Program-made: the position numbers and the translations under genes | The notes under the pieces: model-generated | Seen by the model: the letters and a program-made list of their open reading frames with translations, nothing else | Told to the model about the DNA's origin: nothing | The model's database searches: none | NCBI GenBank assembly: GCA_964631415.1 | Contig: CAZVZC010000020.1 | Coordinates: 1 to 35,411 of the forward strand | Length of the DNA: 35,411 nucleotides | DNA from: an uncultured archaeon | Lineage (GTDB): Archaea; Asgardarchaeota; Thorarchaeia; Thorarchaeales; Thorarchaeaceae | Reading direction: 5' to 3' | Part shown: piece after piece, positions 1-35,411 of the stretch | Numbering within the stretch: the stretch's first letter is position 1 | Layout: every line of letters begins with the position of its first letter

Positions 1-13
1 CTCTAACGGCTCA

Positions 14-2749
14 TTGGGTGACGCTGTGCTACTGAACCTTTCTGATAACTCCGAAACCAGGCTTGGGTTCTCAGGTCATCACGAATACGAGTACAACCAT
101 CGCACGAACACAGTATTCACATTCGAGTCCTACTTCGCCACAGCTAACGGGTCCGTATACGTCTATGACATGATTCGTGAGTTCAACCTGACAGGGTATT
201 GCGTCTGGTCATTCGACACTCAGACACTTGTCCCGCCCGGCAGATGGCATCCTCGCGACATGTTTGACACAACATGGCCTCTCTACGATGTGACTCACTC
301 GAACACGATATTCTTCGACAGCGATGAAGACATCATCTACTACAACTCACGCAACCTGAGTACATTCTACAAGATCAACCATACGGATAGTCGAGTGATC
401 TGGGGACTGGGCGAGTATGGCAACTTCACGCTCTACAATCGTTGGGGCGATGAACGCGACACTCTCTTCTATCATGCTCACTCAGTCGAGAGAGTTGACG
501 ACAACACTTTCATCATCTTCGATAACGGCCCGTTCAATCAGACCGACCATGCGAATGAGCGCTCTCGCATTGTGGAGATCACAGTGAATGAAACGGCCAT
601 GACTGCGTACGAGTCATGGTCTTGGGCTGCGCCCCGTGAGTACTACAGCGTCATATGGGGGGACGCAGACAGGCTGCCCAATGGCAACCGTTTAGGGGTG
701 TTCGGGACACATAGCCACCCCGATTGTGACATCGGAGCCCGGATTGTGGAGGTCAATCCTGAAGGTAAAATCGTCTGGGAACTGAACTTCCCACACTCTC
801 AGGATTTCACCTATGGCATCTATCGAGCTGAACGATTTCGTTACAGCCCAATAGTATCTGCTGAATCTGAGAACATCAGGGCCGTGACGCATGAGAACTT
901 GAGTGTTGCCTGGAATCTCTGGTACAACTATCGTCCCAAGCATACCGTCACTGGGAGCTATACTGTGTACCTCAACGGGATTCCCGTAGAGAACGGGACC
1001 TGCGCCTATGACAGGTTCTGGCGAGCAGAGCGCCTCTTGTCCGTTCTGGGCGAGCTGGAAATCGGCAACTACAATGTGACTCTGGAGATTTCTGACGAAG
1101 ACGGACATACTACGACCAGCAGCGTAAGTGTTTTCGTGAGCAACTTCTACATCGATCGCGAAGGTCCCCTGTCGTTTGAGATAGGACAGGAGAAACACAC
1201 GATTCTCTGGTCCGGAGAAACAAGTGGTCCTTTGGACTGTAACATCACGGTCGATGCTGCTCTCCATGATTCTCTTGTGTGGACCGGTTCCAACATTAGC
1301 GTTGACTTGTTGACACTAGGGGTTGGTAATCACAGTGTTTGTCTGAAACTGTTCAATGGAACCGATCTTGTGTATGAAGACGGCATGATGGTCGCCGTCT
1401 ACCCCTCGGAGGAGCCGGTGTTTCTCTTTATGCCGCCCGTCACCCCGCTCCGTTGGAACACAACGACGGTGGTTTCCTGGACTTTCACGGACAAGTCCCC
1501 AGCCACTTGGCACCTCTACATCAACTCCTCCGCGGAGAAGTGTGGCACTTGGAACTGCACAACATACACCCTCAACTGGAAGGTGCCCACAGAGGCTCTG
1601 TACAACCTCACATTGGACGTCTTTGATTCAGCTGGGCATGTCGCACGATGCTCTTCATGGCTCGTAGTGCTTCCGCCGAGTCCACCCATCTTTACTTCGA
1701 CTCCTGGCAACCGCACAGTGACATGGGGAGCCGAGGGCGTCACTTTCACATGGGAAGTGCATGGTGGCAGCTCTTGGAGCGTATGGAGAAACGGCACAGT
1801 GATTCTAGAGGACGAGCTGCATGGAGACTTAGTCAGCGTGGCCGTAGCTGATTGGAGGACCTATGGATGGCGGCCCGGTCTGTACAACCTGACCTTGCTT
1901 GTTGTCGACAGCAACTCCTCTGCCAGAAGCACTGTCTGGATTGGCGTGACTGTCGACTTGGGTGATCCATATGCAGATTTGAATATCAAGGCAGAATCAC
2001 TATGGGTTTCGTTTCCTGAGAATGCTCTCGGACCTCCGGATGGACAGTCTGCGAGGATCTTTGTGGACTATGGAAACGGATACCTGACTCTAGACATGGG
2101 TGCAAGTGAAGAGATTGTCGACGGTCAAGGGAACGACCTGAATGTGATTGCAGGAGGCGGCACATACGCCGTTCTCGCAAGCAGTAGTCTGAGCGAGCTG
2201 TTCGTTCCATTGGGCGCCGGTAGCGGTAGTCAGAGCTTTGATCTAGCTGCTGCCGGCATTGAGATGGCTCGTTACGTCCGAATCGAATATGTGTCCGGCG
2301 AATTCGTGATGCTCGATGCGATCGTCGCACTGAACTACAATAGGCCAGCTCAAGACACTGAGCGTCCACAGGTCTACGGCCCCGAGGACTTCTGGATTTG
2401 GGAGAACCAGACCGATGCGACTCTGACGTGGATTGCTTCCGATGCAACACCATGGAGTTACAGCATACTCATCAATGGCAGCCGCGCTAGCTCAGGCAAT
2501 TGGAATGGCTCTGACATTGTGTTTGTGTTCATGCCCCAAGGCCTCGGGACATGGAATGTGACTCTTCTCCTAACTGATGCCTTTGACAACTGTGTTCAAG
2601 ACACTGTTTTCGTTGAAGTGCGATCTTATGCAACCACGACGACACTCACTGTCAATGCATACGTCCTCATAGCAGTGTCAGCATGCGTCTTGGGCGTCTG
2701 TGTGGCTCTTGTTTACATAGTGGCTCAATACCATCGCCGGATTGGTTAG
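14..2749 (+). CDS. Arylsulfotransferase (ASST)-like beta-propeller surface protein with Ig-like repeats and C-terminal membrane anchor; probably 5'-truncated by the window edge
   Basis: DVTHSN, FYHAHS, FDNG and GDADRLPNGN motifs typical of ASST-like propellers. Repeated beta-sandwich units (G.YN.TL...D..G), many N-x-S/T sequons, C-terminal TM followed by HRR. No signal peptide at the called start. Confidence 0.75.
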   Translation: MGDAVLLNLSDNSETRLGFSGHHEYEYNHRTNTVFTFESYFATANGSVYVYDMIREFNLTGYCVWSFDTQTLVPPGRWHPRDMFDTTWPLYDVTHSNTIFFDSDEDIIYYNSRNLSTFYKINHTDSRVIWGLGEYGNFTLYNRWGDERDTLFYHAHSVERVDDNTFIIFDNGPFNQTDHANERSRIVEITVNETAMTAYESWSWAAPREYYSVIWGDADRLPNGNRLGVFGTHSHPDCDIGARIVEVNPEGKIVWELNFPHSQDFTYGIYRAERFRYSPIVSAESENIRAVTHENLSVAWNLWYNYRPKHTVTGSYTVYLNGIPVENGTCAYDRFWRAERLLSVLGELEIGNYNVTLEISDEDGHTTTSSVSVFVSNFYIDREGPLSFEIGQEKHTILWSGETSGPLDCNITVDAALHDSLVWTGSNISVDLLTLGVGNHSVCLKLFNGTDLVYEDGMMVAVYPSEEPVFLFMPPVTPLRWNTTTVVSWTFTDKSPATWHLYINSSAEKCGTWNCTTYTLNWKVPTEALYNLTLDVFDSAGHVARCSSWLVVLPPSPPIFTSTPGNRTVTWGAEGVTFTWEVHGGSSWSVWRNGTVILEDELHGDLVSVAVADWRTYGWRPGLYNLTLLVVDSNSSARSTVWIGVTVDLGDPYADLNIKAESLWVSFPENALGPPDGQSARIFVDYGNGYLTLDMGASEEIVDGQGNDLNVIAGGGTYAVLASSSLSELFVPLGAGSGSQSFDLAAAGIEMARYVRIEYVSGEFVMLDAIVALNYNRPAQDTERPQVYGPEDFWIWENQTDATLTWIASDATPWSYSILINGSRASSGNWNGSDIVFVFMPQGLGTWNVTLLLTDAFDNCVQDTVFVEVRSYATTTTLTVNAYVLIAVSACVLGVCVALVYIVAQYHRRIG

Positions 2750-2790: not shown

Positions 2791-4350
2791 TCACTTCCTT
2801 CTTTTCAGAGCTAAGGCAATCACCAGAATCGCTGCGACTCCTATGACTAGACTGCCAACGATGATCGGGTCCAATGCCCTGCTAGTCCCAACAGAGAAGA
2901 AAGCAGTGACAAATGATGCCATTTCTGCTGCGTACACATAGACCGTGTAGTTGCCGTCTTGCAATGTCCGTGAAACCGTGACGGTCCATGTCTGGTTTTC
3001 AGCATCTACCCAGTTGCCTGTCGAGTTGCTGTAGATCCTATACGCAAGACCAGTGAACTCAGACCCCTCCGCCGGTCTGTACCACAGCTCGATGGGAATG
3101 GAACTGCTCTCATAGACATGACCGGCTATGGGAGAAACAACATCAACAGCGTGTTCGGCGTAGTTCGGAATGTAGTCAATGTCGAATATGGCACCGGCAG
3201 GCCCTTTCCATACTGTGGCGTCGATCTCCCAGATGGTGCTCCCATTCGGGGCCACTTCCCACACCCAGCTATTGACGGAGTCAAGAAGAAGAGTATTTCC
3301 GTTGGGCAACCTATCTGAATCCTGTAGCTTGGAGCTGTTGAACTTGTGCTCTGTCACGCTGTATTCCCACACGATTTCCTTCGTGCTACTGTTTATCTCA
3401 AAAGCACGCCAATTGCTGCTGTCGGAAACTATGAGGTTCCCGTTTCTTAGCATCACTGGATCGTGCTGATAGTAGGGTATGGACCCTCCCCACTCCCAAT
3501 CGATCTTGCCGGACGCATTGATCCAGGCATGCTCTGGGCCAAAGAGCCAAACAGGCATACCAGTGGGGTCAACAATCACTGTCATGTTCAAGTGGCGGAG
3601 GTTGATCATTGTGTTTCCATTGGGCAGACGGTCCGCGTCATTGATGTGCGTCCATCTAGCTTCTTGACCGCTACTCGGTGTATCTTGATATATCTCCCAC
3701 TGAGTCCAGTTCGGATACCTTATCCACTCCCGTGGATTCCAGTCCCATACAATCTGGCCCTCCGAATTCACTTCTATGACTCTACCATCGGAGCCGTTAC
3801 CTTCAGCTGAGCCCATTGCGTTTGCCACGAGTGTGTTGCCGTTCGGCAATCGTTCCACATCATGAGGCCATTGCATGTCAGAGTCAGACACATATGACCA
3901 CACGAGGTTGTTCTCTCCATCAAGTTCGACTATGCATCCGGGACGCACTGGATAGACAAACGCCCCGGTGGTCGTGTTCCATATTCCTGCTGCGCAGCCG
4001 GGACGCTTGTTGTATCCGACCTGCAGTAGGAAGTGACCATTGGAAAGGTATTCGACAGAGAACACACCACAGTCCGCCAAGGGATACTTCCAGTCTGGTA
4101 TGCCGCCTGGGATTCTCTTAATGCTCACATTGAGGAACTCGTGTCCCGTGGAGTTGATGATCACTGCGCCGTTGATCTTCGGCGCGTTTAGGACAAAGCA
4201 TCCTGCATACTCTTTCACTTCTAATGCGGCAGATGGACGAGTGGTGTGAAGCTTCACCATCCCCTGTGCCACAGGCTGATACAGAGAAAGAACGAGCGCA
4301 AGAACAGCAATCAGTATGAATGTCCTCGAGTTCAAATGTGACAACCTCAA
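2791..4350 (-). CDS. Arylsulfotransferase (ASST)-like secreted, membrane-anchored protein
   Basis: N-terminal hydrophobic signal. Repeats HDVERLPNGN, HINDADRLPNGN, QHDP..L.NGN and QDSDRLPNGN. C-terminal TM followed by KRRK. Confidence 0.75.
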   Translation of the reverse strand: MRLSHLNSRTFILIAVLALVLSLYQPVAQGMVKLHTTRPSAALEVKEYAGCFVLNAPKINGAVIINSTGHEFLNVSIKRIPGGIPDWKYPLADCGVFSVEYLSNGHFLLQVGYNKRPGCAAGIWNTTTGAFVYPVRPGCIVELDGENNLVWSYVSDSDMQWPHDVERLPNGNTLVANAMGSAEGNGSDGRVIEVNSEGQIVWDWNPREWIRYPNWTQWEIYQDTPSSGQEARWTHINDADRLPNGNTMINLRHLNMTVIVDPTGMPVWLFGPEHAWINASGKIDWEWGGSIPYYQHDPVMLRNGNLIVSDSSNWRAFEINSSTKEIVWEYSVTEHKFNSSKLQDSDRLPNGNTLLLDSVNSWVWEVAPNGSTIWEIDATVWKGPAGAIFDIDYIPNYAEHAVDVVSPIAGHVYESSSIPIELWYRPAEGSEFTGLAYRIYSNSTGNWVDAENQTWTVTVSRTLQDGNYTVYVYAAEMASFVTAFFSVGTSRALDPIIVGSLVIGVAAILVIALALKRRK

Positions 4351-23934: not shown

Positions 23935-25875
23935 ATGACACTGAAAGGCGAGAATGCAGCTGAACTCGCTAAGATCTTCGGTAACCGGCTCGTCACTGCC
24001 AAACATGAGCTGATTGTCCACTCAATGGACGTGGGGTCACTACCGAAGCAGGTCGGCTGGCTAATGAACACAAACCCCGACGCAATGGTGCAGCCAGAGT
24101 CGGCAGAAGAAGTCCAATCGTTGTACGACTTCGCCCGTTCTCACAGAATTCCCGTGGTTCCTCGAGGGGCAGGGACATCAGGCTACGGGGGTGCCATACC
24201 ACGGAAGGGTGGTATCGTTGTCGACATGCGCAGGATGGATCGGGTCCTGAGTGTCGACAAGGAATCGATGACTGCCGTGGTGGAACCGGGCATTTCATGG
24301 GCAAACCTGCAGCTAGAGCTGAACCGTCAGGGCCTTGATCTTAGATGCTATCCTTCGTCAGCAGTGTCCGCGACCATTGGAGGCTGGGTGGCGCAGGGCG
24401 GCGATGGTATTGGCTCGCTCAAGTACGGCAACATCAATGACAACGTGGTTGAACTCGAAGTTGTTCTACCCGACGGGAAGACAGTCGTGACTAGAGACAC
24501 GGATCTGTTCTGTGACACAGAGGGGATTTTGGGCATAATCACAAAGGTCACACTCAAGGTCAAACCTCTGGTTCCAGTTCGCTCCATTGTTGTGAGCTTT
24601 CCCGAGAACTACCTGATGGTCTTCGCGATTGAGAGGATAATGAAGGATGGACCCCTGCCGTTCACCATGAGATTCGAAGAGAGCAAGTACACAGACCTCA
24701 AGAAGAAGATCTGGGAGGGCAAGGCGCCCTTCCCGTTTCCTGTGCATCACTGCGTTCTGTTGATCGCCTACGAGGGGACAGATGAAGAGATTGCTAACGG
24801 ATTCGACGTAGTCAAAGAAGTGTGTGAGGAACTGAAGGGGACTGTCTACGATGAAGGCGTCGCACTCCATGAGTGGGAAGACAGGTTCTATCCCATGAGG
24901 ATAAAGAAGATTGGCCCCACACTCGTTGTTGGACAGGCATTCGCCCCGATAGAGAACCTAGAGGCCGTTCTAGACGACTTCCAGTTTGAACAAGCTTCGG
25001 CTCATGCGGGAATCGACGGTTACGTGACATCGAAGAATGGTGTCACAATGATGGGCTACTTCCTTGAGGACGAGCGGCGTCATTTCTTCATGCTGTCTTG
25101 GTCGCAGAGTTTTGTGATCTTCAAGATTGCACAACGCCACGGAGGGCACCCTCATTCGACAGGGATCTGGCTGGCGAACTACGCACCGATATACTTCGGC
25201 ACACGTCGCCTTGGCAGGATCAGAGCCGCCAAGCTGAAACTGGACCCGCTTGAGATCTCCAACCCGGGCAAGGTGTTTGCGTACTGGCTTCCACTGATAC
25301 TCAGAATCGGCAAATACTTCATGTGGCTGGGATTCGATCTGTTCAGGAATGGATTCGGTAGGATTGCGCCTATTCTCCTAAGGTGGCTCCAGAACCTCCC
25401 ACCGATAAAGTGGCTTCTTCGCTGGGGTCGTGCCCACAGCCCTTGGCCGGTCCAGTACGGTCTCGGGTGTTGCATGGTCGATGGTGCAGCCGCGGTCGCA
25501 TCTCGCTGGGACCTTGAGAGGTTCGGCATGCTTCCACTATTTGGTCCCCGGCAGTGTGATGTGCTGTGGGTATCGGGTTCCCTGACAAAGAAGATGGCTC
25601 CTCGTCTGCGGAGGATCTATGAGCAGATGCCTGACCCCAAGTTCGTCATATCATTCGGACAGTGTGCTGCAAGCGGAGGTCTCTTCTGGGATGGATACTC
25701 GCTCGTTACTCCTCCTGACAAGGTGGTGCCAATCGATGTGTATCTACCAGGTTGTCCTCCGAAGCCTTCAGACTTTGTCAGGGCACACCTGATTCTTCAG
25801 AACAAGATTCGTGCAGGGACAACCCACTGGCAGCTGAAACATGAGAATCAAGATGCGATGGGCGTGATAAAGTAG
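23935..25875 (+). CDS. FAD-linked oxidase/dehydrogenase (GlcD-like) fused to a C-terminal NuoB-like Fe-S domain
   Basis: VPRGAGTS..GG, VEPG, ATIGG, TEG.LGIIT and K..LDP...NPGK, followed in frame by GLGCC, PRQ.D....G..TKKMAP.LRR.YEQMP.PK.VI..G.CA..GG and DVYLPGCPP. Confidence 0.9.
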   Translation: MTLKGENAAELAKIFGNRLVTAKHELIVHSMDVGSLPKQVGWLMNTNPDAMVQPESAEEVQSLYDFARSHRIPVVPRGAGTSGYGGAIPRKGGIVVDMRRMDRVLSVDKESMTAVVEPGISWANLQLELNRQGLDLRCYPSSAVSATIGGWVAQGGDGIGSLKYGNINDNVVELEVVLPDGKTVVTRDTDLFCDTEGILGIITKVTLKVKPLVPVRSIVVSFPENYLMVFAIERIMKDGPLPFTMRFEESKYTDLKKKIWEGKAPFPFPVHHCVLLIAYEGTDEEIANGFDVVKEVCEELKGTVYDEGVALHEWEDRFYPMRIKKIGPTLVVGQAFAPIENLEAVLDDFQFEQASAHAGIDGYVTSKNGVTMMGYFLEDERRHFFMLSWSQSFVIFKIAQRHGGHPHSTGIWLANYAPIYFGTRRLGRIRAAKLKLDPLEISNPGKVFAYWLPLILRIGKYFMWLGFDLFRNGFGRIAPILLRWLQNLPPIKWLLRWGRAHSPWPVQYGLGCCMVDGAAAVASRWDLERFGMLPLFGPRQCDVLWVSGSLTKKMAPRLRRIYEQMPDPKFVISFGQCAASGGLFWDGYSLVTPPDKVVPIDVYLPGCPPKPSDFVRAHLILQNKIRAGTTHWQLKHENQDAMGVIK

Positions 25876-26610: not shown

Positions 26611-27390
26611 ATGGCAGCTGTTAGCATCAAGCATCTTGTGAAGAGTTATGGCAGCTTCGTTGCTGTGAATGATCTCTCGTTCGATGTACGTGAGGGCGAA
26701 GTCTATGGGCTTCTTGGACCCAATGGTGCCGGGAAGTCGACAACCTTGAAGGTCCTCATGGGCCTTTTGGATCCCGACGCAGGGACCTCCACCGTCTTTG
26801 GCATGGACTCTGGCGCGAGCCCTGTTGAAGTGAAGAAACGAGTCGGCTACGTGCCAGAGGAGCTGTCACTCTATGAGTCGCTCACAGCGAGAGAGCTCAT
26901 TGACTTTGTTGCCTCAATAAGGGGGCTCAGCCCAGAAACTGCAACAAAGCGGGCGTCCGAGATGTCAAAGGCGTTAGACTTCACTCAACAGTATGACAAG
27001 ACTGTCGTGACACTATCACATGGAAACAAGCAGAAGGTGATGTTGATCATTGCCATGCTTCACGCTCCAGACTTGCTGATTCTTGACGAGCCCTTCACAG
27101 GCCTAGATGTCCGAACTGCTCGAATCATGAAAGATGTCATCAAAATCCATGTGAAAGGGGGTGGCTCCGCCCTGCTGAGTACTCACATAATGGAAATGGC
27201 AGAGGGGCTATGCAATAGAGTAGGAATCATCGACAAAGGAGTCATGATTGCTGAGGGTACGCTGGAGGAACTGCGCAAACAAGCCCAGAGTGAGGGAGCA
27301 ACACTTGAGAAACTGTTCCTCAAGTTGACCGGCGCAGAGGAAGAGGTAGAAGAGGGCATAGAAACTCTCCGGGAGGCTTTGGGAGATTGA
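26611..27390 (+). CDS. ABC transporter ATP-binding protein (exporter type)
   Basis: GPNGAGKST, LSHGNKQK signature variant, LILDEP, STH. Confidence 0.95.
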   Translation: MAAVSIKHLVKSYGSFVAVNDLSFDVREGEVYGLLGPNGAGKSTTLKVLMGLLDPDAGTSTVFGMDSGASPVEVKKRVGYVPEELSLYESLTARELIDFVASIRGLSPETATKRASEMSKALDFTQQYDKTVVTLSHGNKQKVMLIIAMLHAPDLLILDEPFTGLDVRTARIMKDVIKIHVKGGGSALLSTHIMEMAEGLCNRVGIIDKGVMIAEGTLEELRKQAQSEGATLEKLFLKLTGAEEEVEEGIETLREALGD

Positions 27391-29027
27391 ACTTCGGCAA
27401 GAGGTGGCGCATAGCTGGAGTCGTTTCAATGGAGCTGCGCTTCCGGGGCTACCTTGATGCCAACCCAATGGGCGCTTCTCGAATCAAAGAGAACCCCGAG
27501 AGGATCATGAGGCAGATAAGAAGTTCGAATCGGATGAGCGGACTGCTCTCAGCCATGTTTATTTCACTTATTGGAGCAGTGTCTGTTGTAGGGGCCTACT
27601 TCAACAATGCCGTCGGATCATTCTACCTTCGTATGGCACTGTCCATATCCTTCTTCTTTGTCCTCACATTTGTGATTGTGTTCTTCATGAACCTCATGGC
27701 AACGACGGGATTCTTTGGAGCAAGTGCCATGCGTTTGTTGTCGATTCTGCCTTTCTCACGGGGGGATCTCGAGAACATCATCCTTCTGGCATTTGGCAGA
27801 GTCTTCATCGCTCCCGCTGTGATAATCAATGTAGTCTTTCCTCTCATCTGCCTCGCCCTGTTGGGGCCTCTTGTCGGACTCGTTGCATTGGCAGGTTGTC
27901 TGATGACCACGTCCTTTGCCATTGGAGCACTGGTCAAGGTTTCTAGGTGGTTCTACATCAAATCACACACCTCGACTGATTCTCGGGCATCGACCATCAT
28001 CCGGATAACTGCAGGTTTGGGGATTGTGGTTGGAATGTTTGCCGTCTACGGCATGATAGGAATTCTACCAACGCTGGTGCAGTCATTGGTGCAAATGTCC
28101 CTGAGCATCGGTGAGATTGCAGTATCATTGCTTGCTCTTGTGTTCCCCTTCAGTATTGGAATTCTGGCCGCGGCACTCTTACCGGGCATGGTCTTCTCGC
28201 CAATAACAATCGGGGCTGCGATTGTTTCTTCCATACTGTATGGGTTTCTCGCGCTTGTCGCTTACGTGCGCAGTGGGAACTCACTGAGATCCGTGGCCCT
28301 GGGAGGAGTGACAACAAGTGGCAAAGAGATTCTACGCGACATCAGCGTAGACATAGTCAGCCCCATAAGTGCAATAATCCGGAAGGACATGAAGCTGGCA
28401 AGTCGCAACCTCGGATCAATGGTGATCATCGTACTGCCTATCCTGATGATATTCTCGGCCTATCCTATCGTAGCATTGACAACAGAGGGGTTTCTGAGGA
28501 GTTCTTCAGCTCTGGTCGGTGCAGGATACATAACTTCGTTCACGGGAATCTCGTTCATTGGTCTCCTGTCCTTGGACTCAGAGGGTGCGTCGCTCCACGA
28601 GGGACTTCCGATAGACAGCAGAATGATACTGAGCGCGAAAGTGAGAGTCTTCACAGTGCAGTTTGCCTTGGCGATGAGTGTGCTTGTGGTCTGGTTTGCA
28701 CTGGCCAGCCCGATAACGCCGCTTCTAGTGCTACTACCGATTATCGAACTGCCCTGCGCATACGCCATTGGCTACTTGGTTGGTGCGGCAGTGTACCACA
28801 TGAGAGGAGGTGGCCGAGTCGTTGCCATCAATATCGCGGGCGACCAAGCAGTCGTCTTCCTTTCCATGGCTCTGACTGCGGCCATTGGCGCCGCCCCTCT
28901 GGGAGCATATGCATTGACCTTATTGACAACAGGCAATCACATCATGGCACTCGGTCTGCAACTAGTGGCTGTTCTGCTTGAGGTACTTGCCGCACGTTAT
29001 GCATCTCCGAGAATGCTAAAGGGCTGA
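27387..29027 (+). CDS. ABC exporter permease (12 or more TM)
   Basis: Overlaps the ATPase stop (TTGA). Highly hydrophobic, with a twofold LP..R motif and I.RKD.K...R. Confidence 0.8.
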   Translation: MNFGKRWRIAGVVSMELRFRGYLDANPMGASRIKENPERIMRQIRSSNRMSGLLSAMFISLIGAVSVVGAYFNNAVGSFYLRMALSISFFFVLTFVIVFFMNLMATTGFFGASAMRLLSILPFSRGDLENIILLAFGRVFIAPAVIINVVFPLICLALLGPLVGLVALAGCLMTTSFAIGALVKVSRWFYIKSHTSTDSRASTIIRITAGLGIVVGMFAVYGMIGILPTLVQSLVQMSLSIGEIAVSLLALVFPFSIGILAAALLPGMVFSPITIGAAIVSSILYGFLALVAYVRSGNSLRSVALGGVTTSGKEILRDISVDIVSPISAIIRKDMKLASRNLGSMVIIVLPILMIFSAYPIVALTTEGFLRSSSALVGAGYITSFTGISFIGLLSLDSEGASLHEGLPIDSRMILSAKVRVFTVQFALAMSVLVVWFALASPITPLLVLLPIIELPCAYAIGYLVGAAVYHMRGGGRVVAINIAGDQAVVFLSMALTAAIGAAPLGAYALTLLTTGNHIMALGLQLVAVLLEVLAARYASPRMLKG

Positions 29028-29101: not shown

Positions 29102-29482
29102 CTAGGGCTCGTTGAGCCATCCGACGGAAGCCACCACAAGGAGGACACCGAAGGCAATCCAAAGGAAGACTAGACCACCAAGATAGCCTGCGTAAAGTGT
29201 GACATCTAGATAACCCTGGATTCCTCCAAGTATGCCGGAAATGAATGTGAGCGCCATGCGCCTTGGACGGGTTCCTGCGTATGCCACGGCCGCTGTCGCT
29301 AGTACAAAGAGACTGCAGTCCACGAGAAGGAGTGGGCGGAGAAATGGCTCTGCGACAGAACTCATCGTCCACAACATGTACAGGAGAATCAGAGCCAGTC
29401 CGATAGCGAGCACGGAGTAGTAGACTAGAACGATTTTTGTCTTGGGCGCCAAGCGAATCACCTGAGGTCTGGCCTCGGACAT
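29102..29482 (-). CDS. Small 4-TM membrane protein of unknown function
   Basis: ATG start and four hydrophobic segments. Lies just downstream of the cassette array. Confidence 0.65.
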   Translation of the reverse strand: MSEARPQVIRLAPKTKIVLVYYSVLAIGLALILLYMLWTMSSVAEPFLRPLLLVDCSLFVLATAAVAYAGTRPRRMALTFISGILGGIQGYLDVTLYAGYLGGLVFLWIAFGVLLVVASVGWLNEP

Positions 29483-29556
29483 CCGGGAGAAACCGTCGTA
29501 GTGCTCTATTTAACTGCTTTGAGGAATGGGGCTCTGACTTCCAGTGACACCGGCTT

Positions 29557-29690
29557 CCGTGCCATCGACCGGGGTGGCATCTTCCGGCAAAGGCGCAGTC
29601 GGGTCACGCTTTGACAGGTCAGCGACTACACTGTTGTCGTGGACCCAAATGTCCACAAAACGGTAGCAGACAGCCACACGCTTCAAGGTG
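29557..29690 (-). pseudogene. Cassette conserved module, copy A (degenerate, no C-terminal domain)
   Basis: Reads YRFVDIWVHDNSVVADLSKRDPTAPLPED..PVDGT, homologous to copies B-D. The frame stops at 29510. Confidence 0.8.
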
Positions 29691-29699
29691 GTGGGGCAA

Positions 29700-29915
29700 T
29701 CAGGAGTCGGGTCGGTGCTCTTCCAGTGTTCTCTTTCCCTCCATGGCAGACAACTCACATTTCAGACCACCAGTTGGGTCAGGGCTCACACTGAGCGCCC
29801 TGAGGATGGCGAAAAGCGAAACGAACAACATCACGGGGACGGGCTGGTCGGAGAAGCCGAGGAGCTCTTCAGACCAGAGGATTCCCAAAGCAAGAAGCGG
29901 CAAGCCGAAGAACAT
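29700..29915 (-). pseudogene. Fragment of a small membrane partner-like gene
   Basis: Two hydrophobic segments, same strand as the array, positioned between a partner gene and module A. Confidence 0.35.
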
Positions 29916-29939: not shown

Positions 29940-30347
29940 CTAAGGCCCTTTGTTGTCTGTTGGACGGTCTTGCGGTTCATGTACCAGCTCATACTCTTTC
30001 GGTGGGCTCTGAGAAACCTTTCGATGAGTCGCCATGACTCCTGCAAGGGCGGTCAGTAGCATCCCGACTGAGACCCCGACCAACAGGACAACGAAGTCCA
30101 AGTGTGGAAATGCGCCCGCCCATCTAGCAGTAGCCAAAAGGACAAGAAAGCACACTACCCCAACGCTGCACCCTAAGCCAGAGAACCACAGAACCAACGA
30201 TTGTTCTTTGTCCGTCATCTTGCTCCATGGCTTTTTCCGTGTGCCAATCGCCTCGTAGACCAGTAAGTAACTCGAGAGGACTGAAAGTGACCATGACGCA
30301 ACCATAAGCAGCAACGAGAGCACCAGAGGATTCATCACTTCTTGCAC
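29940..30347 (-). CDS. Orphan 3-TM partner (putative immunity) protein
   Basis: GTG start with AGGTGA upstream. TM, basic loop, TM, TM, tail layout like the other partners. Confidence 0.65.
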   Translation of the reverse strand: MQEVMNPLVLSLLLMVASWSLSVLSSYLLVYEAIGTRKKPWSKMTDKEQSLVLWFSGLGCSVGVVCFLVLLATARWAGAFPHLDFVVLLVGVSVGMLLTALAGVMATHRKVSQSPPKEYELVHEPQDRPTDNKGP

Positions 30348-30491: not shown

Positions 30492-30872
30492 TCACCCCTG
30501 CTGCAACTCTTTATCCATCTCCAGAAGCACCTTGCGGACTTTGTGCTTCATGGGGATCCCGGCGATACTTACAATCAGGATAAGAGCAGTGGCTACCACT
30601 GGCGTGAAAGGAGAGGAATACCCCACGGCAATCTCGGTCAAGGGTGGCAGAATGTAGGTCCCCCAAATGGTGTATGCAACGATAGCGTTAGGAAGTAGGA
30701 CCATCATATCGAGAAGGAAGTCGCCCAGTCGAGTGTTGGCTGAATATGACTTGACTAGCCACCTCCTACGTCCTATATGCCACAGCATCGCTGCATGCGC
30801 TATCTCTCCAACTAGAAGTACGGATCCAGCCGATAAGAGCGCGAGGACCACTGCAAAGGCGAAGACCAACAT
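30492..30872 (-). CDS. 3-TM partner (putative immunity) protein of cassette B
   Basis: ATG at 30872, one nt after the cassette B stop. 126 aa with three hydrophobic segments. Confidence 0.65.
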   Translation of the reverse strand: MLVFAFAVVLALLSAGSVLLVGEIAHAAMLWHIGRRRWLVKSYSANTRLGDFLLDMMVLLPNAIVAYTIWGTYILPPLTEIAVGYSSPFTPVVATALILIVSIAGIPMKHKVRKVLLEMDKELQQG

Positions 30873-30873
30873 A

Positions 30874-31911
30874 CTAGAACACTCCGACGCGGCATTGAGC
30901 CGCGAATGACAGCAACAACAGCCCCGTGACCAGTAGCACGATTCTGATTGCCAGAGAACCAATAACGGTCGCTTGGGCCATTTCCCAAATGAACCAGATT
31001 GCTGGCGGGAAGACAAGGCTCACCACCACGGCTCCAAGCCATGCCAGCGCAGGAAGACCGAACAGGGTGCCGAGGCATCCCATTCCCAGAAGGAAGTAAA
31101 CCCACGCCGCCCACCCGAGTCCCTTCGCTCCCGACGCCAACCACGCGTCCACAGATATCCTGAGCGACACTATTGCACAGACCCACATAGCTACAGCGAA
31201 GGCTCCTGCGCCGCTTATGAAACCGAGGCCAGCAGTCCCTTCAATGAATCTTATCGCGAGAAGACATGCCGCGAGGAAGCTAGTGAAGAGAATGAAGGGT
31301 GCCAGCTCCTCAAGAGCCTCTCCCCAGAACTCTCGGTCGTCATCATCGGTCCATTCAGACCCCGTGTCAAACTGCAGGACAGTGACCTGATCGAGTAGGT
31401 CTCTCTTCCCATGGAAAGATGGTTCGACTTCCGGATGCTGACAATCTGGCGGTCGTTCTCTGACAAAGTGAAGCTCCGGCCACGGTCCGGTCCAGTAGAG
31501 TTGCAGTTCCGCGTTCACCTTGTCTAGGTCCGTCTGGAACGTCGCTTCGGGCTCAGGAGTTGCAGTTCCCTTAATCGTCCCATCGTAGTCCACGGGCTCG
31601 TCAGTGTCAGGCGCAGTGGGGTCATGCCTTGACAAGTCAGCGACCACGTTGATGTCATGGACGCGCACGTCGACCAGCGTGTATGAGGAGGCCCTCTGGC
31701 CGAGAGTGACCACGTACTTGATGACGCGTGAGGAGTTGTTGACCTCTGCTATGGGATAGCCGCTGCCGGACCCATCGATGCTCGAGTATATGGCGCCATC
31801 GCCTCCCTGCCACGGGTCCCACCAGACCTTCGCAGTCTTCTGGAAGGACGTGTAGATGTAGCCTGACGACTGAGAGTAGGGCGCGCCACGACACGTGGTT
31901 TCTGACCCCAA
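30874..31911 (-). CDS. Cassette B: conserved module plus variable multi-TM C-terminal domain (probably a 5'-truncated orphan)
   Basis: EVNNSSRVIKYVVTLGQR..SY.LVDVRVHDINVVADLSRHDPTAPD, then GPWPELH and about 5 TM helices. Only a TTG start, no signal peptide. Confidence 0.7.
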   Translation of the reverse strand: MGSETTCRGAPYSQSSGYIYTSFQKTAKVWWDPWQGGDGAIYSSIDGSGSGYPIAEVNNSSRVIKYVVTLGQRASSYTLVDVRVHDINVVADLSRHDPTAPDTDEPVDYDGTIKGTATPEPEATFQTDLDKVNAELQLYWTGPWPELHFVRERPPDCQHPEVEPSFHGKRDLLDQVTVLQFDTGSEWTDDDDREFWGEALEELAPFILFTSFLAACLLAIRFIEGTAGLGFISGAGAFAVAMWVCAIVSLRISVDAWLASGAKGLGWAAWVYFLLGMGCLGTLFGLPALAWLGAVVVSLVFPPAIWFIWEMAQATVIGSLAIRIVLLVTGLLLLSFAAQCRVGVF

Positions 31912-31933
31912 ACGGCCACCTTTGCGGCTTCTG

Positions 31934-32494
31934 TCATTCCTTGCGTTCTTGTCCTGGCTCTAGCCGTTTCAGGGCGTCCCTGAACGCTTGCCCAATCTCG
32001 TCATCGCGGGACAGAAGCCTCTGTTTTGCATGCATGTATTCTTTAACCATTACGTCATCGGGATCCAACTTCCTCATTTCTCCCAGGAGCGTTGAAAGCA
32101 GCCCATCCAGATGCCCGTTTCTGTAATTCTGTTCAATCGTGAGTTCTAACATCTGTTCTAACATCTCGCCGGGCTCCACATCCTTTCTTGCTGTTGCTTT
32201 GAATCGCTGCCCTATCAGCACGTAAGTGAATGCAGGTGCAGACATCAGAATGACTAGCACCACACCAACCTCAGGATGCGCCGCTTGAACCCACAACACA
32301 GGAAGAACCCAGAAAAGAAGCACCAGGAGCATGGCTTCGTATGCGGCAATGGCCCTTCGACGCGTACCGAAGACTCTGTGTCCTACGTTGCGCAGAGTGG
32401 ACGGCCCCCTGTTTCGAGAAGTCAGCAAATCTACGAATGCGAAGAACAAGACTATGCCACAACTCGCAATTGCCGCTAATCCGAATGTATCCAC
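31934..32494 (-). CDS. 3-TM plus helical-tail partner (putative immunity) protein of cassette C
   Basis: GTG start with AGGAGG overlapping the cassette C stop. C-terminal LLSRDDEIGQAFRDAL motif. Confidence 0.75.
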   Translation of the reverse strand: MDTFGLAAIASCGIVLFFAFVDLLTSRNRGPSTLRNVGHRVFGTRRRAIAAYEAMLLVLLFWVLPVLWVQAAHPEVGVVLVILMSAPAFTYVLIGQRFKATARKDVEPGEMLEQMLELTIEQNYRNGHLDGLLSTLLGEMRKLDPDDVMVKEYMHAKQRLLSRDDEIGQAFRDALKRLEPGQERKE

Positions 32495-32507
32495 GATTCA
32501 GGGCCTC

Positions 32508-33420
32508 CTAGGTGCTCCAACCCATAGCAAGGTAGTATCCAACATACCATGCGCAGGTCAACATGACGGCCATCTTGATAAAGGCCACTGCAAAGAACCA
32601 GATGCCTCTGTTGAATCCAGCTGGGGCTATCGGGAAGGGCTTACAGGCTTTGTAGAGCCTGTACATGAGCCAGCCCGCCGCAAGATCAGGACCTACGCCC
32701 GGGAATAGTAGCATAATCAGACTCAGGAAAGCGGCGGCCGCACCGTATGGATGCATCACATTGTTTTCCACTGCCCATTGGATAAATGCCACATACACTA
32801 AGAACAGGACGGTCCATGCGCCCAACATCGCCAAGAGGACCCAAATGCTGGTAAGCATAGCAAGCGGACTGGCAAGATTCTCGATTAGCATCAGCCCATA
32901 CTTCAATGCGAAAGCCAAACCCACTGGCGCCACGAATTTAACTAGGAACTCGGCCCACCCACTGTCCATCTGTTGAGCCACTGCGCCCATCTCTTCTTCT
33001 GTACCCTCGGCCTCTATGCTTGACGCAATCGACAAAGTATGCACCTGTATGTCTCCCAGGATATCGACCGAGATCAGCACATTGAATACGGTCTCGATCA
33101 CGTCAACGAGTTCTAGGAACAAGCGGGGCCAGAAGTTCACTAGAGCCCAGAATGCCTCTAGGGAAACACTCAGCAAGCTGAGCGTCTGTTCTCCCTCTTC
33201 CTGACCACACTCAGGAGTGGGAGCGGTTCCATCGTTCTCCTCCGGGTCCGGTGCTGTCGGGTTGTGCCTTGTCAAGTCAGCGACGACGTTGATGTCATGG
33301 ATGCGCATGTCGACCAGCGAATACGAGTTGGACCTCTGTCCGACTGTGACCACGTACTTGATCACGCGGGAGCAGTTGTTGACCTAGATGATTGGGCATG
33401 AACCTATAGACCTGTCAATG
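32508..33420 (-). pseudogene. Cassette C: truncated conserved module plus variable multi-TM domain (open frame 32508-33385)
   Basis: 33251-33385 matches 31611-31745 at 114/135 nt by manual count. Upstream homology continues through an in-frame TAG (IDRSIGSCPII*VNN versus IDGSGSGYPIAEVNN in B). Confidence 0.75.
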
Positions 33421-33442
33421 AGGGGTCAACCTTTTCTGTGGG

Positions 33443-33870
33443 CTATGCCTCTATTCCGAGCTCCTCGATCTTCGCCCTTGCAGCACTTCCAAAGTCATCT
33501 GTGCGGCGCGCCATCAGAACCAAGAAGATCTTGCGGTCGCCAGGAGGGCAGCCATGACTGGGGTCCCGTATGTAGCTTACAATATAGTCTATGCCTTCAG
33601 CCGGACTACGACCCCCCATTGCCTCGACGTATCCGGCAATGTGCTCCTCAGGGCCCGGAGCAGAGGAGAACCTTTCTCTGTTGAGATACACTGCCGCCTT
33701 AAGGACGGCAAGATCACTGATGAGTGTCACCAACAGAATCATCGAGTAAGAATCACCCCGACCATCATCAGACCCTAGACTGATGTGATGAGGATTAATG
33801 TGGCGGAGTAGCAGAGAAGGTTCAATATGTGGCTTTCGAATACATGATGAGCAAACTGGTGTGCCAGCAG
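33443..33870 (-). pseudogene. Decayed orphan partner gene (intact part 33443-33742)
   Basis: C-terminus LMARRTDDFGSAARAKI shares the partner motif. The upstream hydrophobic frame (ILNLLCYSATLILITSV*GLMMVGVILTR*) has a stop and a frameshift. Confidence 0.6.
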
Positions 33871-34021
33871 TCAGCCCATCGCATCCTCTGCAACCTCCAG
33901 GTAAGCGATAGCAGCCAGCATTGGGATTCTTGGTGCCAACGCGCTCATTCCGGTCATATACTCACCAGAAACATTCGTCCTGAATACAGCCAGCCCGCCG
34001 ATAGAAGAGCTCTGTATATAA

Positions 34022-34546
34022 CTAGTCCTTCTGCTCGTAGTGGAGTGCCTTTCTGACGAAGTCCCCTAGCGAGTCCTGACGCAGTATCAGTGCATCCAAA
34101 GCGGCTCTAGCGTCCGGCTCAACTGCGGCTTCCTGAGTTAGCGCATCGATAGCGTGTTTCAGTTTGGCAGTGTTTCCTCTAGCGAATTGATAGTCGATGT
34201 GGGAAGTATAGAAGCCGGGGCCTTCGAGTCGCACTGAAGACCGGCGGTCCCTTGCCACGATCTCTCCAACCACCCCAACGGCTCCTCCGAATCCCGTCAA
34301 TAGAACAAAGGCGAGCCCAGATGCCTCTGCAATTCCGAAGTACATCACACAAGAGAACAAAGCGTACAAGTATGCGAGAACGAAGACCATGCATGTCCGG
34401 ACTCGTCCCTTGAAAATCTCGCCGCTGACCCTGGATAAAACCGAATTCTCTCGCCGTCCAAGGTGAATGCCGTCCAGCACCACAAGTAGAACGTACAGCA
34501 GTATCGATGTAATGAGGTTCAAGAGGTAGAGCATGCTGGTCACCAT
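34022..34546 (-). CDS. 3-TM plus helical-tail partner (putative immunity) protein of cassette D
   Basis: ATG at 34546 overlaps the cassette D stop (ATGGTGA). C-terminal LILRQDSLGDFVRKAL motif. Confidence 0.75.
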   Translation of the reverse strand: MVTSMLYLLNLITSILLYVLLVVLDGIHLGRRENSVLSRVSGEIFKGRVRTCMVFVLAYLYALFSCVMYFGIAEASGLAFVLLTGFGGAVGVVGEIVARDRRSSVRLEGPGFYTSHIDYQFARGNTAKLKHAIDALTQEAAVEPDARAALDALILRQDSLGDFVRKALHYEQKD

Positions 34547-35411
34547 CCATAAAGTTGTACGTGAAGCCAAGCGTAATGTAACGCCAAGTAGATGCATGTA
34601 ATGGAAGCCGAAACCTTCACGGCAATCGTGACTATGGTATAGAGGACTTGCAGCAATCTGATTTGCTTCCAGTGGGGATGGGTGGTTATCAGGTACTTCT
34701 GATACCACTCCTTACCTTGTTTCCATTGAGCGGATAGGCCACTACCCATGAAGTTCATAAAGCTGAGCCCCATAACGCAGAAACCTGCGGCAGCAGCTCC
34801 TGGGGACATCAGTTCCATGTCCACAGCACAGACCACGGCATACACCCAACAAGCGAATAACACTGCCCACGCGACATAGAGGGCTGTCATTGCCGCAATC
34901 CACGCGGGTATTGGCACCAACCCGGCAATATCAAGCAAAACGAGGGACACTCGCAGACTCAATGCAAACACACCTAGCTGACCACCCCACACCCTAAGAA
35001 GCTCATCCCACAACCCAGCACTGGCGGTCTGAATGAGCTCAATGGGGACACCATTTTCGAATGGCAAGAGCATACTTAGTGTTTCGAGAACTACATATTG
35101 AAGGATATCAATCGCGATTGTAAAACTGGCCACGCAGTCTTCTACATGCAGTACGGCCGGAATATGAAGCACGGGCCAGGGTCCGGTCGAATATGGCTGT
35201 TGAGCTGTTGCGCCTGCGTCGAGGCCACTATCGGCTGCCAGTCTGCTCTGGGGTTTCAGGAATCTCACAGACAACGCCTCAAGCTCGCCCTTATCCGTCC
35301 CATCGCACTCCACAGGCTCGTCGGGGTCAGGCGCCGTGGGGTCATGCCTTGCCAGATCAGCGACCACGTTGATGTCATGGATGCGCATGTCCACGAGCGA
35401 GTACGAAGAGT
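34540..35411 (-). CDS. Cassette D or 3' end of the full-length parent gene: conserved module plus variable multi-TM domain; frame open at the window edge
   Basis: SSYSLVDMRIHDINVVADLARHDPTAPDPDEPVECDGT, GPWPVLH and about 4 TM helices. No upstream stop within the window. Confidence 0.75.
   Translation of the reverse strand, partial: SSYSLVDMRIHDINVVADLARHDPTAPDPDEPVECDGTDKGELEALSVRFLKPQSRLAADSGLDAGATAQQPYSTGPWPVLHIPAVLHVEDCVASFTIAIDILQYVVLETLSMLLPFENGVPIELIQTASAGLWDELLRVWGGQLGVFALSLRVSLVLLDIAGLVPIPAWIAAMTALYVAWAVLFACWVYAVVCAVDMELMSPGAAAAGFCVMGLSFMNFMGSGLSAQWKQGKEWYQKYLITTHPHWKQIRLLQVLYTIVTIAVKVSASITCIYLALHYAWLHVQLYGW

Follow-up and report, generated by a model that had tools for sequence, protein, structure and literature searches.

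Sec-dependent polymorphic toxin systems in which a caspase-like domain does the processing (Zhang et al. 2012, PMC3482391) are among the closest comparisons for the locus described here, an array of paralogous membrane-protein genes in a 35,411-bp contig (CAZVZC010000020.1) from an uncultured Asgard archaeon of the family Thorarchaeaceae. The window, that is, the whole of this contig (C20), is part of a 2.16-Mb metagenome-assembled genome (MAG) that is 85% complete. In the described systems, caspase-like domains are the processing peptidases of Sec-exported toxins, and one pore-forming domain, Tox-WTIP, has two membrane helices with RxxR and Wx[ST]IP (PMC3482391). The archaeal locus resembles them in its constant exported N-terminal part, conserved junction, and variable C-terminal module (the tip), in a small co-varying gene directly downstream (the partner), in its arrays of orphans, both cassettes truncated at the 5' end and partner genes, with apparent recombination in a conserved segment (the arm), and in a predicted clan-CD-like domain in the same polypeptide. 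Of the features by which polymorphic toxins are recognised (PMC3482391), an export signal with a junction, a type-specific downstream gene, and orphan cassettes and partners, were found. However, the variable modules here all belong to one four-helix membrane family, whereas those of the described systems are many unrelated enzymes; the protease-like domain here is N-terminal and not just upstream of the tip; the system is archaeal and confined to one Asgard family; and its toxicity is putative.

Each type of pore-forming colicin has an integral-membrane immunity protein matched to it. TspA/TsaI and EsxX are membrane-depolarising toxins of type VII secretion systems (T7SS) with tandem membrane immunity genes (PMC9484751, PMC12258717). 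In the pore-forming colicins and in these T7SS toxins, likewise, one homologous membrane-acting domain has been diversified into specificity types, and the immunity genes of both, like the partner genes here, stand in tandem arrays that evolve by recombination. However, the tips have no sequence match to any of them, none of them is among the listed structural matches, and the tips greatly exceed them in hydrophobicity, having four full positive-inside membrane helices and no glycine zipper.

The IdsD/IdsE pair of Proteus mirabilis (PMC4471559) is also an adjacent pair of membrane proteins, in which allele-specific recognition overlaps transmembrane (TM) helices. The Ids proteins have two TM segments each, compared with four in the tip and three in the partner. 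IdsD is exported by a type VI secretion system (T6SS), whereas a signal peptide is present here and no match to a T6SS sheath gene (VipB/TssC) was found in the 85% complete MAG. Ids loci lack the arrays of orphan cassettes, and Pfam and NCBIfam searches gave no sequence similarity to Ids proteins. Among archaea, the VARTIG locus of Thermococcales (PMC8416519) is similar as a lineage-restricted locus with a large signal-peptide protein and a hypervariable C-terminal region; the shorter genes downstream can be aligned with this region, with which they seem to recombine, and many neighbouring genes encode membrane proteins. However, the variable part of VARTIG is an extracellular immunoglobulin domain with a putative sorting signal, whereas in the present locus a membrane bundle takes this place, and it has a partner of its own, one to one. 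The authors of that study reported no counterpart outside Thermococcales (PMC8416519).

Overall, the tips are a previously undescribed family of four-helix membrane modules, in a locus built like a bacterial polymorphic toxin/immunity array. The system was not found described in Asgard archaea in a literature search that did not cover the 2019 mBio survey of archaeal polymorphic toxins (Makarova et al.). The window has three paralogous minus-strand open reading frames (ORFs), B, C, and D, and a tipless arm remnant, A, near 29513-29710; two further copies, E and F, lie on a 5.2-kb contig (C67) of the same MAG, where they adjoin nuo genes. The elements of the array are as follows.

30874..31911, minus strand: cassette B, 345 amino acids (aa), with a partial arm; ORF with translation, a match to the hidden Markov model of the arm, and 252 aa beyond the arm.
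Junction from ~31665, WPELH beta unit from ~31482, and helical membrane part at ~30877-31338, minus strand: parts of cassette B, with four hydrophobic segments.
30495..30872, minus strand: partner of B, 126 aa, three hydrophobic segments; a short form that lacks the C-terminal cytoplasmic domain.
29940..30347, minus strand: orphan partner, 135 aa; no tip of matching type in the assembly.
29510..29758, minus strand: arm remnant A, tipless, which stops soon after the junction; found at 29513-29689 by tblastn with B, C, and D.
32508..33365, minus strand: cassette C, 285 aa from a GTG, with a short arm and the junction.
Beta unit at ~33021-33164 and helical membrane bundle at ~32514-32999, minus strand: parts of cassette C.
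31934..32494, minus strand: partner of C, 186 aa, three TM segments and a cytoplasmic C-terminal domain that ends in an R-D-D-x-I-G motif.
34540..35409, minus strand: cassette D, at least 289 aa; a 5'-open ORF that runs off the contig end.
34022..34708, minus strand: partner of D, with an uncertain start (182 aa from 34570, or 228 aa from 34708, overlapping D).
33386..34021, minus strand: spacer between the D partner and C, without an intact family ORF; metagenome contigs cover it at 90-95% identity.

Orthologous tips are known for B (P0002, at 57%) and D (P0019, at 45%), while the tip of C is 99% identical to an orphan tip in the congeneric genome G029 and 41% identical to the tip of the full-length gene P0044. 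The arm homology of C extends to 33419 through an in-frame TAG. As the contig ends within D, this cassette may represent the 3' end of a full-length gene. The partner of B starts 4 nt past the B stop and can be aligned with other partners; that of C begins 16 nt after the C stop, and that of D has three TM segments and a C-terminal domain with an R-Q-D-x-L-G motif. Named homologues of the cassettes carry the labels Candidatus Thorarchaeota or Promethearchaeia. The spacer was called decayed cassette material in an earlier note.

A sequence-only reading of the window had proposed that the variable tips are one fast-diverging membrane-domain family and not swapped enzymes. A search of 1.84 billion representatives with a tip alignment gave 293 proteins (representatives at 50% identity) at E <= 1e-3, 254 of them at E <= 1e-10, and the tip was always C-terminal. 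Single linkage by phmmer at E < 1e-3 joined 153 of 175 distinct helical parts, including those of C, D, E, and F, with 4 reversed-sequence matches against 763 real edges. The helical part of B is directly linked to three sequences only, in agreement with the proposal that B is the most divergent copy; six rounds of jackhmmer from B nevertheless reached 76 family members, and neither the 175 reversed sequences nor the 253 membrane ORFs of the same genome were recovered. Alignment of helical parts by hhalign gave 97% probability and E 3e-10 for C against D, and 94% for F against the P0017 type. In view of this linkage, together with the constant length, the common beta and four-helix layout, and the clean decoys, homology searches place the tips in one family, with B on a remote branch. 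When the threshold is tightened to E < 1e-15, 34 types are resolved among 69 tips.

It might be argued that the tips are unrelated hydrophobic modules of like size which were swapped behind a common beta unit. The few direct links of B would agree with this, and so would hhalign among the first 70 tips, grouped in small type clusters, in which just 5% of the pairs were significant (E < 1e-3). However, hhalign of such small clusters is too insensitive for most types, and therefore the larger sampling was used; its linkage, the near absence of reversed-sequence matches, and the recovery of the family from B without decoys all disagree with unrelated modules. Furthermore, the helix positions differ by just 6-9 aa, and even among the hhalign alignments that fall short of significance 53 were in register, compared with an expectation of 22 +/- 4. 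An origin from unrelated modules therefore seems very improbable.

Between copies, blastn gave 81-86% identity over 89-123 nt, confined to the arms, and tips gave no match, so that DNA similarity does end beyond the arm as had been noticed by eye. Amino acid identity among the arms of B, E, and F is 85-89%; past the junction it is 19-46%, approximately the noise level for this alignment. The arm bears the motif R-I-H-D-I-N-V-V-A-D-L and the junction is HDPTAPDP...DGT, after which follow a four-stranded beta unit with WPxL and D[IL]L, an acidic linker, and four hydrophobic helices. The part after the arm motif has a median of 275 aa (5th-95th percentile 248-287). The landmarks that had been named for the three copies are all present in the translations of B, C, and D, respectively: WPELH, WPRLF, and WPVLH; DLL, DIL, and DIL; WGEAL, WAEFL, and WDELL; and, among these three, in C and D only, AWTVLF/AWAVLF, AV....M.P..AAA.F, and K.....TC. 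Among 106 tips from many genomes, two of them hold as landmarks of the family: a WPxL-type motif ~60 aa past the arm motif in 97, and D[IL]L in 92 (in 86 of the 97, at a median of 24 aa after the WP motif). In contrast, W.E.L occurs in 11 of the 106 and is no family landmark, and the motifs shared by C and D, found in 3-9 of the 106, define a C-D subgroup.

The AlphaFold2 (AF2) model of tip C (mc5546b4ba8a6; alignment of 60 sequences) has a predicted local distance difference test score (pLDDT) of 77. In this model the Pro/Asp-rich junction is disordered, a four-stranded beta unit is formed by residues 49-96 (block pLDDT 77-94), with the WPRLF and DIL motifs inside it, and four helices are formed by residues 104-146, 155-181, 187-222, and 231-265. 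Four Kyte-Doolittle segments were found in 109 of 183 C-terminal stretches of 165 aa, in agreement with the proposed membrane nature of the tips. The charges are distributed as the positive-inside rule predicts if the N-terminus lies outside: the 18 aa preceding TM1 are acidic (3.7 Asp/Glu against 0.6 Lys/Arg), the TM3-TM4 loop of 31 aa has ~4 Lys/Arg, and the tail past TM4 is ~9 aa. Many public gene calls for orphan cassettes (P0084, P0099, P0112, and others) start at the Met of D-M-R-I-H-D, probably as an effect of the gene caller on 5'-truncated arms. This Met as the true start of tip-only proteins was rejected as unlikely on topology grounds, since a leaderless, acidic N-terminal part of ~120 aa would have to cross the membrane or else the charge pattern would be violated.

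No tip, partner, or full-length parent (one was searched) matched Pfam, NCBIfam, or PADLOC; thus no enzyme family was recovered, and the view that the tips are not swapped enzymes is supported. The Pfam families of pore-forming colicins and their immunity proteins had no match to any tip or partner at E <= 1, and PDB sequences had none to tips or partners. Foldseek of the tip C model against the PDB gave nothing better than E = 0.2, and an exhaustive VIA structural search gave generic helical bundles only, with Z up to 11.9, which is background for helical models; the fold of a known transporter or anchor family was not encountered. A claudin row in Foldseek was dismissed at a TM-score of ~0.2, and neither it nor any colicin, transporter, or other specific fold was conspicuous.

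Partner genes were surveyed in the window, on C67, and in 20 loci of related genomes, which together gave 41 modules of arm plus tip. In 37 of these, the tip is followed at no more than 50 nt by an ORF, 100-230 aa long, whose first 110 aa usually contain three hydrophobic segments. From the charges, the predicted topology of the partner has the N-terminus outside, a basic TM1-TM2 loop inside (5.5 Lys/Arg), and a C-terminal tail inside, ~64 aa long on average. About 18 of 31 partners share an ending L..R-[DE]-D-x-[IL]-G, and the remainder are short forms; thus many partners have a conserved cytoplasmic tail of 60-120 aa which bears this R-[DE]-D-x-[IL]-G motif. The 13 most similar partner pairs are all among the best tip pairs, although the modules are related and this is no formal test. 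For the C-type tips of G003, G010, G029, and this MAG, the partners match mutually at E 1e-11 to 1e-117. By these comparisons each tip type is tied to its own partner gene of about three TM segments, and partner and tip co-vary.

Partners also occur on their own. The orphan partner at 29940-30347 has 91% nucleotide and 85% amino acid identity to the partner that follows a full-length gene in G029 (ratio of nonsynonymous to synonymous substitution rates, dN/dS, 0.57), and tblastn found no tip to match it in the 85% complete MAG. On C67, a second partner-like ORF (L006, 1179-1571, minus strand) follows the E partner with no tip between, adjoins the nuo genes, and shares 31% identity with the partners that accompany tips of the L040/L041 type. 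Tipless partners are present at other loci as well, while few complete tips lack a partner nearby. A 126-aa membrane ORF (29102-29482, minus strand) directly downstream of the tipless arm A has a weak match to the archaeal family DUF7546 (E 0.02); it may be another partner-like gene or may be unrelated.

In related genomes, proteins of 1,050-1,430 aa end in the same arm and tip. In P0044, P0045, and P0048, a hydrophobic N-terminal leader precedes ~850 conserved residues, to which the RIHDINVVADL..HDPTAPDP junction and the tip are joined; the leader is a predicted signal peptide, and it is followed by an N-domain of ~300 aa, tandem beta-rich repeats (two of which match Glce_b_sandwich), the arm, and the tip. 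The ectodomain is 54-63% conserved between genera. On contigs C77 of G029 and C12 of G010, a full-length gene is followed by 5'-truncated cassettes, whereas this MAG (85% complete) was found to have cassettes only, with no N-terminal part of a full-length gene. In G055, a divergent paralog of 1,257 aa has kept the protease-like domain, the ectodomain, and the four helices as well as the WP and D-F-L motifs, and it is accompanied by a partner of 113 aa, which suggests that tip and partner are both old and an integral part of the protein.

The N-domain had no Pfam match. His103-Gly104 and Cys138 are nearly invariant across 17 parents, and the AF2 model of P0044 residues 40-210 (L039:15266-16285, minus strand; pLDDT 65) has an alpha/beta core. 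The best Foldseek rows were caspases 1, 3, 7, and 9, the cysteine protease domain of Vibrio cholerae MARTX, the CHAT protease, a metacaspase, C11, and legumain, at E 5e-3 to 5e-2 and probability up to 0.97. By this consistent but weak model evidence, the N-domain is a putative clan-CD (caspase-like) peptidase.

The sequence-only reading had described the family as fast-diverging. Between the window and G029, DNA alignment (~90%) is possible for just the C module and one partner, and their order is changed. The synonymous divergence (dS) of the C tip is 0.08 with dN/dS 0.12, and that of its partner, at 83% amino acid identity, is 0.40 with dN/dS 0.19. Judged by these ratios, the C type is under purifying selection, and the different dS values of tip and partner point to different histories inside one module. 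Type C ends the full-length gene P0044 in G010 and is an orphan here and in G029; tip types recur in other genera at 41-65% identity, on full-length genes or as orphans. Contigs from two metagenome runs of freshwater sediment, from different studies, join 29642 (arm A) to 33332 (arm C), skipping 3,689 nt (C, B, and partners), with 31 other letters between the joined ends, which suggests that the arm is a recombination site in natural populations. Since dN/dS is low and the types recur across genera, the diversity looks like old types which were kept and reshuffled by recombination in the arm, and not like rapid point divergence. The proposal of one family stands, and that of fast divergence has to be qualified; as judged by homology, the tips are dozens of old types of one family of four-helix membrane modules.

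Among 81 genomes sampled from the order, 42 have the gene family (13 of 17 genera), with up to at least 11 matches per genome. In a phylum-wide sample, 18 of 43 genomes of the window's own family had it, and there was no real match in 158 genomes of 26 other families. A lone outside match, in G136, is spurious: the gene lies in an mrp operon and encodes an MnhB-like antiporter subunit. From this sampling, the gene family is restricted to Thorarchaeota.

The function of tip and partner can be potentially described as follows. The tip may be a membrane-perturbing effector, or a harmful membrane module, with the partner as its immunity protein, and the pair may be used between related cells; this explanation is tentatively favoured, at somewhat short of even confidence. 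The full-length protein would be exported by the Sec pathway and would display the caspase-like and beta-sandwich domains on the cell surface, ending in the tip, and recombination in the arm would change which tip the expressed gene carries. The tip would perturb or harm a membrane, and the cognate partner would neutralise it through helix-to-helix binding within the membrane. To reach a neighbouring cell, the tip may be cleaved off by the N-terminal protease or may pass with membrane material exchanged on contact. This is favoured because the locus has the grammar of a polymorphic toxin, because partners are kept without tips, and because a processing-type protease appears to be built in; the asymmetry, with tipless partners present and partnerless tips few, is as expected of immunity genes.

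Several observations weigh against an effector with its immunity protein. The positive-inside charges fit a protein inserted in the producer's own membrane and not a toxin entering from outside, and a resident membrane protein agrees with them better than a soluble pore-former of the colicin type does. No colicin-like fold was among the matches listed for the tip C model; the colicin fold is a globular bundle of ten helices with one buried hydrophobic hairpin, compared with a beta unit and four long helices in the model. Tips are not enriched in glycine zippers (2.9 against 3.7 per 1,000 residues in other membrane ORFs), and none of the 106 tips has both RxxR and Wx[ST]IP in the helical part, i.e. 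no W-TIP was found. The caspase-like assignment depends on matches at E >= 5e-3 and on a structural model with pLDDT 65. A route of delivery is not apparent: the genes upstream of full-length genes vary by genome, and no conserved secretion or injection genes adjoin them. No full-length N-terminus was found in this MAG, and among the sequencing runs listed as matching the window, all with small shares, there is no RNA run. Toxicity, as well as binding between tip and partner, is inferred from sequence; a complex prediction of tip C (residues 50-266) with partner C scored 0.00, was run without controls, and carries no weight either way on binding.

Some of the same evidence could be read without killing. 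Tip and partner may form a non-lethal identity pair of the Ids type, a lock and key that report kin, with a change of behaviour, for instance in adhesion, fusion, or syntrophic contact, as the outcome. Such a pair is possible but rather unlikely. The variation that would bear specificity lies in and around the membrane helices of both proteins and co-varies, as the binding determinants of IdsD/IdsE overlap predicted TM segments (PMC4471559), and many old types under purifying selection, with no toxin signature found, would suit recognition. However, the tip would have to meet the partner of another cell in the membrane, while no T6SS sheath gene was found in the 85% complete MAG and the neighbouring genes are not conserved; tipless partners are easier to explain as protective immunity genes, and the sequence similarity to Ids proteins is lacking. 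Another explanation is a resident membrane complex, in which the tip anchors a surface protease or adhesin and the partner is an assembly, stabilising, or signalling subunit of the same cell; signals might pass through the cytoplasmic domain of the partner, or the complex might serve against viruses as a suicide switch triggered at the surface, and the anchor would vary for reasons other than attack between cells. Both proteins have the ordinary charge pattern of residents with the N-terminus outside, and four strongly hydrophobic helices after a Sec-exported ectodomain should stop transfer and remain in the producer membrane. The conserved cytoplasmic tail of many partners and the retention of tip and partner in the divergent G055 paralog are also as expected of a complex. 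However, a plain anchor has no reason for dozens of co-varying types, apparently silent cassettes, and orphan partners, and the exposed ectodomain is conserved between genera while the buried part is variable, which is the reverse of antigenic or receptor variation; overall, a resident complex appears unlikely.

A more speculative possibility, which at present seems quite improbable, is that Thorarchaeota discriminate kin or attack non-kin by a code that is read inside the lipid bilayer. The four-helix tip of one cell would then be tested against the three-helix partners of another, membrane proteins would pass between Asgard cells by protrusion contact, vesicles, or transient fusion, and the N-terminal caspase-like domain would free the tip from the ectodomain.

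Elsewhere in the window, an ATP-binding cassette (ABC) ATPase and a 546-aa multi-pass permease without a Pfam match (26611-29027, plus strand) converge on the end of the array; in a DNA-level comparison, this pair was not seen beside the array of the congeneric genome. In one ORF (23935-25875, plus strand), FAD_binding_4/FAD-oxidase_C is joined to Oxidored_q6, which is NuoB-like (E 7e-44 and 7e-24 in Pfam). Two large ORFs (2-2749, plus strand; 2791-4350, minus strand) have beta-propeller domains of the arylsulfotransferase type (ASST). The housekeeping genes are archaeal in kind, such as geranylgeranyl reductase and archaeal-type phosphoglycerate mutase.

The Asgard archaea are the closest known relatives of eukaryotes, and little is known of their mutual interactions. 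This type of locus is abundant in one Asgard family, and its genetics follow the logic of systems for conflict or recognition. It may yield a new fold of membrane-acting effector, natural orthogonal pairs of helix-helix recognition, and possibly evidence for the exchange of membrane proteins between Asgard cells.

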